From Eshraghiella crossota (lineage in GTDB: Bacteria; Bacillota; Clostridia; Christensenellales; CAG-917), in assembly GCA_963590075.1 (NCBI GenBank), contig CAVANK010000006.1:1082-65081 (forward strand): a stretch of DNA of 64,000 nt, written 5' to 3'. Within the stretch, counting starts at the first letter, position 1. Each line of letters begins with the position of its first letter. The position numbers were made by a program, and so were the translations under genes. Shown here one piece after another: positions 20,706 to 53,448 of this stretch. The notes below the pieces were generated by a model. The model saw only the letters and a program-made list of their open reading frames with translations, had not been told where the DNA came from and searched no databases.

Positions 20706-23700
20706 TTAGGCAAGGGTGATGGCTTGACCTGTTCTATCGTAGAACGTAAGCGTTGCAACATTGTCACAAAGTTTATCCGCTGTTATTTCACCGGCGGTTG
20801 ACGTCCAAGTCACGTTATCGTAGACTTTGTCTTCCCACACCAACGCATAAACTGTTTGTCCATCCTTCACATATGACACAACAACCTTATTTGCTGCACC
20901 CAAATGTTTGTATTGATGAATTTGGGTGCCTGTATCGGCCTGCGCTGCGAAATAAAAGTCAGTGCCTAATGTTGGATTGTTGCGATAAGGGCATATTATA
21001 ACATTTCCATCAAATGCCATAAACCTACTGTAGCTACCATCAACGATTGCCGTTCCGTCATCATTGATTTTGCCACTGATTGTGCCACTTACGGTTCCAT
21101 CTGCCGCAACACTCAACGTATAGCTACTAAGATCTTTGTCGAACTCACTATAAACATTTGCTATAATATAAGAACCATACCATTGCACCGCCTCAACCCA
21201 TTCGCAATAAACAGTCGTATCTTCTGTGATGGTCGTTGCCGTGAAGTCAACTTTGGTTACGCCCTCGTCGGCAGTGGTGTACCACTTGCTGAACGCTTTG
21301 CCGTTGGTGAATTCAGGTATATGCTGACTCATATTAAGTGCATCGCCTGCGCCATAGACAACAGTCTTGTTCTTAAGTTCGTTGCCATAGACAATTGTCA
21401 AAGTGACTTTTACGTCCCATTTTGCAACAAGCGTAACATCCGTCATTGTCACAAACTCTGTCATTGAAACAAGAGTTTGATCTGCATCGTTTTGCACATA
21501 CCAACCACGGAATACTTTGTCCGTTCTTTCTGCCGGTGTTGACAAGGATGTCTTGATACCTGCAAGCGCGCTATCAGATACAACAGCATCTCCGCCGTCG
21601 TTGACATACGTAATTTCGACATTGTTTGTCTCCATAGCGTACTTATAATCCGTAGTGTTGATGAACAATTTGTTTGAGATTGAACTTACAGCGGCAGAAT
21701 CGGATTGATAGATTGCATAGAAGGATGCGTCATAACCTTCTTTAGTGAATTCCGCAACGGTGTACGTTCCCACTGTGTTTCCATCGCTAAATGTTATCTT
21801 GCCCATACCATTCAACGTGATTGTATCATCACCATCTTTGTATGTGCCTTGATAACCGTCCAAAGCGACAAGTTGAGTTCCGTCATAACCGAGGCTGTAC
21901 AGAGGCGCAGTTGCGTCCTGTGATGCGTAGATTAACACACATTCTGCATTATAGACTTTGCCACATGCAATGTGAGCGCCATTGATGTCAACCACTTTCG
22001 CATCGAAATGCACGTTGCCGTTTTCAATCAACAATGTGTGTGTCTCACTGCTTGTACCATTGCTTACGACATAATCCAAGACGGAATTTTTGCCATCCCA
22101 CGTAGTTGCATTGGTTGCACTAACACTATATCCTTCCGGCATGAAGAATCCGAATTTGGAGATGGTCTCGGTATCCTTTGTATAACTTGCGACAATAACA
22201 CCTGTTGCGCTATCGACAATACCGTAGAAAGTATACGTTGTGTTTTTGCTACTATCTTTATTGTACTTGACAACGGTGAATGTGATCTTACCCGTTGTCG
22301 CATCATAAGCAGTTACACTTATTCCATAGCCAAGATAAGTGGGCTCATCGTCATCATCGTCATATCCCCATCCGCGTTCGCTTGAGTTTGTGCTCGAACA
22401 ATCAAAGAACGGCAATGTTTCTTTTTTATCAGTTCTGTCAAACGTACCTTTGCCGGTCGTTCCGTCAAACGTTACAGTGGTTGAATAAGTAGGTTTGCTG
22501 GCGTATGACGTTCCGGATTTTGTAGATAAGCTTGAAACATATACAAACGTGTATGTCTGTGCGTAAGCACACTCATCCCATTTTGCGTATACGTCTTTTG
22601 TTGAATCTGCAATACCATTCCAAGCATTTTTAAACGTCGTATCATCAAGATACCAACCGCCGAATGCATATTTCGCTCTCGAAGGATCTGCCACCGACTG
22701 TGTTTCATCTTTTGAATACACAACCGCTTTATTTGCCGTTGTGCCATCATTGTAGTGATACGTAATGGTGACAGGCGTCGAATATTTTGCATAGAGCGTT
22801 ACGCTCTTGGACGTTGCAAAATTGCTCGCGTCCGCTACTTTTCCCGTTTCGGCGAATGCCTTATCCGTGTAATATCCGTTGAAAACGTAACCATCAACAG
22901 TTCCGTCAGGAAGTGCCACACCGATATTTGCGTTTACACTCATCTCTGCGATGGTCTTATTAATGCCTTCTGGCACAACAAACGTGATCGTCACCATCGG
23001 CTTTTCAACAGTATAAGTGCTGCCATCGAGAGTTGCCGTGTAGTACTCAACGTTCTTGCCGTCGCTGACGACGTAGAGATCAAACGTCTTTGTATCCGCA
23101 TTGGTCACAGTATAAGTACCGGTCTTTGTACCCCAAGCGAATTCGCCCGTTCCACCGAAGACAAGATCATCTTTACCTTCACAAGTATAAGTGCCAAAGT
23201 ATGCGTCGAGTTCACGAGGCAAATATGTTGACGAAGTGCTTTCTCCGATTGTCGATTTGCCTTGCGCTGCAGCGCGAGCGAATATCACATTGCCGTCTTT
23301 ATATACAACGACAGACGCAGCGTTTGCAATAGAATTTGTTTGGCTCTTATCAACAACAAGAGCGTTGCCGAGCGCATCTTTAATTTCAACACCGCTGTAA
23401 ATCTTGTTGCCATAAGTAAAGACGTTGGTGTTGTCGCCAAGCGCCGTCTTTGCTTGGATGAATTGCGCGTAATAACTGGTAAGCGTACTGTCCACCTTCA
23501 CTGCATATACGCCATATTGTGCTACAACTTTACCTGTAGAAGGCATATCTTGACCGAGGAAATAATAGTCATAACCAATATTGTTATTGTCATAGATGCC
23601 AAGGATTATTTTTGCGTCGGCATCGAAATAGAACGTGCCGTTTGTCCACGTGATTTTTTGCGTTGTAGGATCATAAGCCGTAACCGTGCCGGTCCTAAGT

Positions 23701-53419: not shown

Positions 53420-53448
53420 ATCTTACTACTCCCGTTTATAAGTGTCAA
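53420..53448 (-). promoter_or_regulatory. Candidate promoter of the giant lipoprotein/opp block
   Basis: Minus strand TTGACA-N17-TAAGAT, about 83 nt upstream of ATG 53337. The leader contains ATATGC-GCGTGCGTAAGTGCGT-GCATAT. Confidence 0.45.

Follow-up and report, generated by a model that had tools for sequence, protein, structure and literature searches.

A Conserved Locus Linking a Large Cell-Envelope-Type Subtilase, an Opp-Type Importer, and Accessory Lipoproteins in Uncultured Gut Firmicutes

Introduction

In Lactococcus, a genus of lactic acid bacteria (LAB), the opp genes form an operon of their own and the cell-envelope proteinases (CEPs) are wall-anchored; lactococcal CEPs lose their N-terminal prodomain on maturation. 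The streptococcal C5a peptidases ScpA/ScpB and the protease SpyCEP are sortase-anchored virulence factors with narrow host substrates. RagAB of Porphyromonas gingivalis is reportedly a peptide-importing version of utilization-locus logic. In Lactococcus, prtP and prtM are arranged divergently and controlled by CodY, PrtM being a lipoprotein peptidyl-prolyl isomerase (PPIase) (PMC13374181); dentilisin (PrtP) of Treponema denticola was described as one of just two lipoprotein subtilases known (PMC3285142). Here, we describe a locus of about 32.6 kb in a 64,000-nucleotide (nt) stretch of DNA from Eshraghiella crossota (assembly GCA_963590075.1, contig CAVANK010000006.1, positions 1,082 to 65,081 of the forward strand), hereafter the window, in which a large subtilase, a complete Opp-type importer, and several lipoproteins are encoded together.

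The block consists of 13 consecutive minus-strand open reading frames (ORFs; positions 20706–53337 of the window), identified by ORF listing and translation: g1, OppA, OppB, OppC, OppD, OppF, and g7–g13 (Table 1). We propose, with a rough probability of 0.55, that the locus couples surface proteolysis to peptide import, with fast-evolving accessory lipoproteins, and that it is chromosomal and vertically conserved in uncultured gut Firmicutes labeled Christensenellales and relatives.

Conservation of the Locus

An alignment search with the g10 family among GTDB contigs, one genome per species, yielded 87 relatives, of which 80 were kept; their loci were annotated by BLASTP against the window proteins. 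The co-directional order OppD-OppF-(g7)-g8-(g9)-g10-g11-g12-g13 was found in these 80 species loci wherever the contig was long enough. The protease was present in 76 of the 80, the remaining four contigs being too short; g11 was encoded in 74, g12 (after g11) in 71, and g13 (after g12) in 52. OppF lay directly upstream of the protease in 57 of the 58 informative loci, i.e., those with a full-length protease and more than 1.2 kb of upstream sequence. The complete order g1-OppA-B-C-D-F-g7-protease was identified in loci L087 and L093. The NCBI locus tags of an OppA (IJX91_04710) and a g11 homolog (IJX91_04755) are nine genes apart in the same metagenome-assembled genome (MAG), as expected.

A search with g11 gave 73 homologs from uncultured Clostridia, all unnamed or annotated as “hypothetical”. 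Six g11 contexts on metagenome contigs, corresponding to five distinct genomic places (48%, 39%, 33%, 27%, and 28% identity), all had the same order: a protease of ~2500 amino acids (aa), proteins of ~185 and ~780 aa, the g11 homolog, a protein of ~1400 aa, and a Flg_new protein of ~1800 aa. A first-pass annotation, made from the window sequence alone, had suggested testing other genomes for conserved co-occurrence of the protease, the “two-lobed” lipoproteins, and opp; the outcome was strongly positive, in 80 genomes and in independent metagenome contigs at 27–48% identity.

A rearranged form of the locus, type B, was also found. Locus L090 (type B module at 305–19321) encodes a 1838-aa Flg_new lipoprotein, a 1319-aa g12-like lipoprotein, a paralogous protease, a 217-aa lipoprotein, g1, OppABCDF, g7, and rpsD, in this order; neither a protease downstream of Opp nor g10 or g11 was found within the sequence seen, and at least one genome seems to carry type B alone. 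Some genomes have both modules around one Opp: in locus L091 (type B at 1–19613), a type B module and a window-like, type A module lie on either side of a single Opp core. The type B protease has 2490–2500 aa and is 44% identical to g8; its family gave 4272 hits at E < 1e-20, and the best 120 of these are mostly ~2460–2540 aa in length, with two shorter (1633 and 2169 aa). Since the linkage survives this rearrangement, a functional tie is supported beyond plain collinearity. Gene order thus supports the functional coupling of protease, Opp, and lipoproteins.

All carriers originate from gut or fecal metagenomes. Submitters labeled them, in ways that could not be confirmed, as anything from Christensenella to Bacilli and Mollicutes, and in some cases as Bacteroides or Acidiphilium; the last two are obvious misassignments. 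Loci L007–L086 fall into a low-GC group (27–32%), mostly labeled Bacilli, Mollicutes, or Acholeplasmatales, and a group of 40–58% GC labeled Clostridia or Christensenellales; in a rough clustering of g10, the two groups were not cleanly split. The sole complete genome found with a related locus (L086) is 2.0 Mb in size, of which 32.6 kb would make up 1.6%.

Cell-Envelope Protease

The product of g8 begins with a lipobox and a presumed prodomain, followed by an S8 domain with a PA insert, fn3_5, Big_2, a BspA-type leucine-rich repeat (LRR) array (~1400–2260), a helical region, and a C-terminal transmembrane (TM) helix. Pfam matches included Peptidase_S8 (E = 1.8e-41), PA (residues 484–559), fn3_5 (726–845), Big_2, and the LRR_5 array (E = 4.5e-147). 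The PDB sequences matched were those of C5a peptidase (7edd, E = 1.5e-63), SpyCEP, and cell-envelope proteinase A, with E values of 1e-57 to 1e-63 over residues ~184–886; g8 is collinear with 7edd over residues 212–886. The catalytic triad motifs VAILDSG (D225), HGTHVAG (H298), and SGTSMATP (S619) were present, and they occur in 63 of 64 full-length orthologs. These data support the assignment of g8, by homology, to the cell-envelope proteinase/C5a-peptidase family of subtilases (MEROPS S8). The earlier view of g8 as an S8 protease of the cell-envelope type is thus borne out by the PDB sequence matches and by the S8, PA, and fn3_5 architecture.

The same annotation had described the protease simply as lipoprotein-tethered. 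Hydropathy analysis revealed in addition a C-terminal TM helix (2503–2521) followed by KRTII, and such a tail was found in at least 50 of the 64 full-length orthologs. No LPXTG motif was found when the C-terminal sequence of g8 was read, i.e., the wall-anchor feature of the family is missing. The predicted anchoring of g8 is therefore a variant mode combining an N-terminal lipobox with a C-terminal TM helix. About 900 residues of BspA-type LRR plus the helical region separate the catalytic head from the membrane anchor. If the prodomain is removed as in lactococcal CEPs, then the lipid anchor goes too, and by this analogy the mature form of g8 would be held by its C-terminus.

Opp Importer and Associated Genes

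The genes for an Opp-type importer were complete, encoding a family-5 lipoprotein, two permeases (with OppC_N in OppC), and two ATPases with oligo_HPY domains. Compared with AppA of Bacillus subtilis (1xoc), OppA has ~280 extra residues between positions ~150 and ~510. In its AlphaFold2 (AF2) model (predicted local distance difference test score, pLDDT, of 78.6), the insertion, at ~160–370, is mostly helical. The best Foldseek match was the nonapeptide-binding AppA (E = 8e-16), and AppA, OppA, and others were matched with a probability of 1.0; the NCBIfam Opp4A score was far under its cut-off. We infer the peptide specificity of OppA from its genomic context. The enlarged OppA, with the standard cluster-C fold, forms a distinct family: the best 120 of 2981 homologs are all 860–913 aa long and 57–85% identical. 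OppB is 79–81% identical in L087–L089. In the window, OppF carries an acidic C-terminal extension of ~100 residues; in L089/L090, OppF is a protein of 708 aa with two ABC_tran matches (L089, 15909–18035).

Orthologs of g1 (36–42% identity) are encoded directly upstream of OppA in L087, L088, and L089/L090, and a gene of similar size occupies this place in L092 and L093; g1 precedes OppA in every context seen. The Pfam/NCBIfam searches with g1 gave only a sub-threshold match to Flg_new/List_Bact_rpt, along with a weak match to a pectate-lyase-like adhesive domain (E = 0.02). The protein had been called “GLUG-like”, and no GLUG domain was found in it by Pfam, so this designation is dropped.

The small protein g7 has a basic N-terminal part and a single C-terminal TM helix; no family match was obtained for it in Pfam/NCBIfam or in further profile searches. 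In 39 genome loci, BLAST detected g7 in the interval from OppF to the protease; where it was missed, the gap of 213–492 nt leaves enough room for the gene. In L089, g7, a small membrane protein with a tail anchor, follows OppF even with no protease downstream, and it seems to be part of the Opp core.

Accessory Lipoproteins

A lipobox cysteine ends the signal peptide in the translations of g1, OppA, and g8–g13, and all of these are predicted lipoproteins of the Lgt/Lsp pathway. Lipoboxes are also present in relatives' orthologs of the accessory proteins; the cysteine is conserved to at least 90% in g10 (C25) and invariant in g11 (C30).

Proteins g10 and g11 are distant paralogs (22% identity, E = 2e-6), as had been proposed; profile–profile comparison gave a probability of 100% and E = 1e-51 over 712 columns. 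The best-conserved accessory protein is g10, with 34–79% identity and 41 invariant columns over 46 sequences. Its family is narrow, comprising 72 clusters at E < 1e-30 in a set of 1.84 billion representatives. In g10, the stop-to-stop ORF reaches position 36302, 62 codons past the ATG at 36116, overlapping g9 and encoding an arginine-rich sequence; this upstream extension (36117–36302) is unsupported, as the orthologs begin at an MKK... signal peptide.

The confident AF2 model of g11 (pLDDT 86.7) contains, besides two N-terminal immunoglobulin (Ig)-like domains, a core rich in beta structure with a few long helices and an alpha/beta domain at the C-terminus. In the PDB, Foldseek matched LprG, LppX, and LprF with a probability of 1.0 (E = 5e-6 to 1e-4, target TM-score 0.51–0.57, root-mean-square deviation (rmsd) 6.6–9.2 Å); no whole-protein match was found in this search, and its remaining matches were generic Ig arrays. 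No Pfam or PDB sequence match of the g10/g11 core to LppX_LprAFG/LolA-like lipoproteins was obtained. The model suggests that the g11 core is made of two LolA-like half-barrels, with a tentative domain split, in agreement with the description of these proteins as two-lobed; the fold of g10 is taken to be that of its paralog. A LolA/LprG-like fold combined with Ig domains would fit ligand binding.

For g9, neither a family match nor a PDB relative was identified. As a candidate relative of g10/g11 or of a solved protein, g9 was rejected: hhalign aligned it only with an Ig-like segment, at 7% identity. In ~16 of the loci where g9 was undetected, g10 begins right at, or just within, the end of the protease gene, leaving no room for g9; g9 is therefore optional and dispensable. 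A g9-like lipoprotein of 217–223 aa follows the paralogous protease in L090 and L091, so that the protease–g9 pair exists in both module types. Fusions of g9 with g10 were sought as evidence of interaction; none was found, the long g10 ORFs having no g9 domain.

An array of Big_3-like repeats forms the N-terminal part of g12, and its C-terminal half has no recognized family; no PDB sequence relative of g12 was found. It was also considered as a third paralog of g10/g11 and discarded, since only the signal peptides align.

Mosaic Evolution of the Distal Genes

The closest relative for nucleotide comparison was locus L007, labeled Christensenella sp. UBA7571. Nucleotide identity with the window is 92–97% from OppD through most of the protease gene, with a dip to 87–89% near its 3' end, and 91–96% again up to codon ~160 of g10. 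The remainder of g10 is only 72–81% identical, and in g11 and g12 the values are under 70%. An island of 80–86% at 25872–26636 runs from the g12 end across the intergenic stretch into the beginning of g13, after which similarity is lost. Sharp mosaic divergence was likewise noted at 33541–35635 and 25872–26636 of the window in comparison with L007, L008, and L010, with nucleotide identity of ~93–95% before and ~75% after codon ~160 of g10. At the protein level, identities with L007 are 95% for g8, 94% for g9, 79% for g10, 47% for g11, 53% for g12, and 33% for g13. The distal cassette of L010 is closer to that of the window (67%, 65%, and 44%), and its protease is slightly more distant (91%). 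Because identity is mosaic between such close relatives, the alignments suggest that the distal lipoproteins were replaced by divergent alleles via recombination at conserved junctions. This is the pattern expected of exposed, selected surfaces involved in binding specificity or serving as phage receptors or antigens.

Genes in the place of g13 vary as well: in L029, L040, and L069, g12 is followed by LRR proteins resembling an 816-aa protein of the window (14573–17023, minus strand), which has BspA-type LRR_5 repeats (E = 4e-51) and lies ~3.7 kb past the locus end.

Locus Layout and Regulation

The run of twelve genes followed by the 1817-aa lipoprotein that had been described earlier was recovered in full, with the coordinates and lengths of all 13 ORFs reproduced, and most of the domain calls, including the S8-LRR protease, the full Opp set, and the repeat lipoproteins, were upheld by Pfam/NCBIfam (Table 1). 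The start codon of OppD is a TTG at 47170; an ATG lies five codons further downstream.

Table 1. Genes and putative regulatory features of the locus (positions in the window; Flg_new repeats are Listeria–Bacteroides repeats).
Feature	Position	Strand	Basis
g1, lipoprotein, 388 aa	52171–53337	-	Lipobox LLVAC
OppA, family-5 substrate-binding lipoprotein, 897 aa	49435–52128	-	SBP_bac_5, E 1e-27; lipobox VLAAC
OppB, permease	48327–49352	-	BPD_transp_1, BPD_transp_1_N
OppC, permease	47171–48316	-	OppC_N, BPD_transp_1
OppD, ATPase	45971–47170	-	ABC_tran, oligo_HPY
OppF, ATPase, 459 aa	44595–45974	-	ABC_tran, oligo_HPY
g7, 94 aa	44324–44608	-	Hydropathy: one C-terminal TM helix
g8, S8 protease, 2527 aa	36698–44281	-	Pfam: Peptidase_S8, PA, fn3_5, Big_2, LRR_5
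g9, lipoprotein, 184 aa	36128–36682	-	Lipobox
g10, lipoprotein, 784 aa from ATG	33762–36116	-	Big_2; lipobox
g11, lipoprotein, 889 aa	31005–33674	-	Lipobox; AF2 model
g12, lipoprotein, 1479 aa	26529–30968	-	Big_3; lipobox
g13, lipoprotein, 1817 aa	20706–26159	-	Flg_new x4, E 6.6e-24
Promoter-like site TTGACA-17-TAAGAT, ~80 nt upstream of g1	53420–53448	-	Consensus scan, 10/12
Promoter-like site TTGACA-17-TAAAAT in the 369-nt g12–g13 gap	26480–26508	-	11/12, best match of the region
GC-rich hairpin GGGGAGC-cac-GCTCCCC without T-run, after g10	33730–33749	-	Sequence read
Bidirectional terminator-like hairpin, 14–15 bp stem, T-runs on both sides, directly after g13	20635–20668	.	Terminator scan

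Spacing in the window ranges from a 14-nt overlap to gaps of up to 87 nt, followed by 369 nt ahead of g13. Across the genome loci, the median gaps were 16 nt for g7–g8, 9 nt for g8–g9, 6 nt for g9–g10, and 22 nt for both g10–g11 and g11–g12; the g12–g13 gap was the widest of the locus (median 85 nt, upper quartile 237). Spacing is thus operon-like as far as g12 and looser ahead of g13. A terminator scan of the locus identified no minus-strand terminator-like site with a strong stem between genes, and the hairpin directly after g13 is the sole convincing terminator-like structure, predicted to close the locus. The hairpin after g10 adjoins position 33541, where similarity to the closest relative breaks.

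The candidate promoter upstream of g1 reported in the first-pass annotation exists as a consensus match only; TGnTATAAT promoter-like elements also precede g1 in L087 and L088. The octamer TTGCATAA occurs in 12 copies in the window versus 2.9 expected, a number reached in none of 100 shuffles. Its minus-strand copies include those at 26441–26448, 26470–26477, 33689–33696, 14427–14434, and 19836–19843, several of them just upstream of the minus-strand genes g13, g11, and that for glyceraldehyde-3-phosphate dehydrogenase (GAPDH), and the g12–g13 gap holds further TTGCATAA elements. Internal promoters may be marked by this octamer, which resembles an extended −10 element (TGcATAAt). The earlier idea of a single 12-gene transcript is tentative: spacing is close as far as g12, and promoter-like elements lie before g13 and possibly before g11.

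The Rfam scan of the whole window detected tRNA only, and in the g12–g13 gap nothing was found at E up to 1, i.e., no riboswitch or leader. In L087, the region upstream of g1 (8231–8840) contains a long perfect hairpin, CGGGCTTTTGTCCGATAC...GTATCGGACAAAAGCCCG, between the TGnTATAAT element and the start codon; this structure, absent from the window, may be a leader or attenuator. A CodY-box-like palindrome, AATTTTTACAAAATT, with two mismatches to AATTTTCWGAAAATT, is located at 53453–53467, 5 nt upstream of the candidate −35 element. It is the only match to the CodY box with at most two mismatches in the window, and the total number of matches is what chance would give. The site is also not conserved; control by CodY, as known from lactococci, was rejected and is kept as a weak lead only.

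The locus is flanked by mnmA, cysK, mscS, and genes for GAPDH, fructose-bisphosphate aldolase, and a GH31 enzyme; because these flanks are housekeeping genes, it sits in an ordinary chromosome and not in a mobile element. An OmpR-type two-component operon immediately upstream of the locus had been pointed out earlier. In the other contexts, this place is taken by an opposite-strand M28 peptidase (L087), a divergent LytS/AraC-type pair (L093), or the type B module (L088–L091); with these genes absent or replaced in L087, L088/L091, L090, and L093, the two-component system was discarded as a component, its neighbor position differing in every other context examined. Farther upstream, a 619-aa minus-strand protein (58738–60597) has N-terminal double zinc-ribbon domains and no further recognized family; its gene lies upstream of epimerase, ferredoxin, and two-component genes.

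Discussion

In the mechanism that we consider slightly favored, surface proteolysis would be coupled to peptide import as follows. The 2527-aa subtilase g8 would be exported and lipidated; its N-terminal prodomain would then be lost, probably autocatalytically, and the C-terminal TM helix would keep the enzyme on the membrane. The BspA-type LRR and Ig arrays of g8 would point outward and bind protein substrates or particles, and the catalytic head would cleave extracellular proteins to oligopeptides. These would be caught by the enlarged OppA and imported by OppBCDF, encoded immediately upstream of the protease. The lipoproteins g1, g9 (where present), g10/g11, g12, and g13 would share the same surface, most likely as substrate-binding or scaffolding partners with fast-evolving exposed parts.

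Several observations weigh against this proposal. The ligands of family-5 binding proteins also include nickel, opines, and sugars, among others, and in the structural search with OppA, binders of nickel (NikA/NikZ), ethylenediaminetetraacetate (EDTA), sialic acid, and glutathione score nearly as well as AppA. The protease family of g8 includes enzymes that cleave host immune proteins and do not feed the cell. No rotamase/PPIase (PrtM/PrsA-type maturase) family match was obtained with Pfam/NCBIfam in any gene of the block, a search that covered the block genes only. The profile hidden Markov model of g9 matched in 57 of the 80 loci and left it undetected in 23. The modeled likeness of g10/g11 to the lipid-binding LprG/LppX is at least as compatible with a role in handling lipids or lipoproteins as with the capture of peptides. 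Judging from the promoter-like sites, g13 probably has its own promoter, and no CodY-box-like site was found ahead of g1 in L087 or L088.

A stronger version of the proposal, possible but tentative, is that the locus is a Gram-positive protein utilization locus, in which the dual-anchored subtilase, OppA with its clade-specific helical insertion as a docking element, and swappable, fast-evolving lipoprotein cassettes would form a physical surface complex capturing particular protein substrates and handing the peptides directly to the importer. The cassettes would be of type A (g9–g13, downstream) and type B (g13'-g12'-protease'-g9', upstream), and their swapping would set which dietary, host, or microbial proteins each strain harvests.

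The main alternative, though rather doubtful, is that the locus serves interaction with the host or with particles, adhesion having been raised in the first-pass annotation as well: like C5a peptidase, SpyCEP, or dentilisin, the protease would cleave host defense or matrix proteins (for example, immunoglobulin A, chemokines, complement, or mucus proteins), the LRR, Ig-like, and Listeria–Bacteroides-repeat lipoproteins would be adhesins or variable surface antigens, and Opp would only salvage the products. The closest solved relatives of g8 are host-targeting enzymes, repeats typical of adhesins (BspA-type LRR, Big_2/Big_3, and Flg_new) are present, and all carriers come from gut or fecal metagenomes. 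Divergent distal alleles in near-identical backgrounds are also what one would see for exposed antigens or receptors, and dentilisin provides the precedent of a lipoprotein subtilase that is complexed with co-encoded lipoproteins and acts on host proteins (PMC3285142). What host interaction leaves unexplained is why a complete Opp system, its enlarged OppA specific to the clade, stays adjacent in 57 of the 58 informative loci and through rearrangement. Host interaction and feeding are not mutually exclusive.

It is unlikely that g10–g13 form an abundant, lipid-anchored, S-layer-like coat, with the protease maturing or shedding the coat proteins and Opp recycling the peptides. The large size and beta-rich character of these lipoproteins, Foldseek matches that include the S-layer proteins SbsB and Sap, the membrane anchoring of every component, and the fast evolution of the exposed parts would fit such a coat; however, TM-scores to the S-layer proteins are low and stem from Ig-like arrays of a generic kind, and no S-layer-homology or cell-wall-binding domains were found by Pfam in the genes of the block. 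Moreover, type B keeps the protease and Opp with no g10/g11 in the sequence seen.

Still less probable is the scavenging of hydrophobic ligands (lipids or lipopeptides) by the half-barrels of g10/g11, with the transporter and the protease in a related envelope or nutrient role. Foldseek matched LprG bound to phosphatidylinositol mannoside, LppX, and LprF with a probability of 1.0, and other carrier MAGs include low-GC lineages (loci of 27–32% GC) and one complete 2.0-Mb genome (L086). The TM-scores of these matches are nevertheless moderate (0.51–0.57, rmsd 6.6–9.2 Å), no relationship was found at the sequence level, and Opp-type transporters are not known to import lipids. Finally, mere adjacency of independent units with unrelated functions is very improbable: the promoter-like sites before g13 and possibly g11, the hairpin after g10, and the non-conserved two-component neighbor would fit it, but order and tight spacing persist across 80 species down to ~35% protein identity, and the linkage is kept after permutation.

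Since about 32 kb, or ~1.6% of a 2.0-Mb genome, is kept in at least 80 species, the locus is likely central to the life of its carriers. Should coupled proteolysis and import be confirmed as a protein-harvesting machine, it would offer a testable handle on the nitrogen nutrition and cultivation of these bacteria, carry the utilization-locus concept beyond Bacteroidota and glycans, to proteins and to monoderm Firmicutes, and give a first context to at least five unannotated protein families (more than 5000 residues in the window). In the tentative case of swappable cassettes, these would define the nutritional niche of many uncultured gut Christensenellales-like bacteria, and if host proteins are targeted, the locus would be a candidate determinant of host–commensal interaction. 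Either way, allele replacement marks the distal lipoproteins as exposed, selected surfaces. Conservation in ~80 uncultured gut species together with cassette-like variation makes the locus a good experimental target.

Comparison with Known Systems

The nearest functional counterpart is the LAB proteolytic system (PrtP/PrtS/PrtH, PrtM, and Opp). Both have a large S8-PA-Fn3 surface protease, and in both surface proteolysis would be followed by uptake through Opp, with a lipoprotein as the binding protein. Unlike in LAB, the protease and opp are here encoded in one conserved co-directional block. Instead of a wall anchor, g8 has a lipobox and a C-terminal TM helix, along with a BspA-LRR array of ~900 residues; the block contains no PPIase maturase, four or five lipoproteins specific to the clade accompany the protease, and OppA has a helical insertion of ~280 residues.

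The streptococcal C5a peptidases (ScpA/ScpB) and SpyCEP are the best solved matches to g8 over the catalytic, PA, and Fn3 region; they differ from it in having no linkage to opp, no LRR array, and no accessory lipoproteins. Dentilisin (prcB-prcA-prtP) is a lipoprotein subtilase forming a surface complex with co-encoded lipoproteins, and the protease–g9 pair resembles its layout; PrcB is likened to g9 by layout only, and in contrast to the present locus, dentilisin belongs to a diderm spirochaete, is much smaller, and is encoded in an operon with no opp.

With the Bacteroidota utilization loci (Sus-like polysaccharide utilization loci), the locus shares an importer, an enzyme at the cell surface, and surface lipoproteins that are rich in Ig domains and poorly conserved, as well as the combination of a conserved transporter and enzyme with variable binding proteins. 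SusC-like or SusD-like domains were not found by Pfam in any gene of the block; import would proceed via an ABC transporter in a presumed monoderm, and the likeness is one of analogy only. The mycobacterial lipoproteins LprG, LppX, and LprF, with a LolA-like fold, are the best structural matches to the g11 core and are likewise lipoproteins, whereas g10 and g11 have no sequence similarity to them, are four times larger, and carry Ig domains and an extra C-terminal domain.

In a full-text literature search, we failed to find a description of this locus, and public annotations of its proteins read “hypothetical”, “leucine-rich repeat protein”, or “S8 family serine peptidase”. The logic of a CEP combined with Opp is already known and not surprising in itself, while the arrangement of the locus is apparently undescribed. 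New here, relative to the systems compared, are several unannotated clade-restricted lipoprotein families, a modified OppA, and the unusual dual anchor predicted for the protease.

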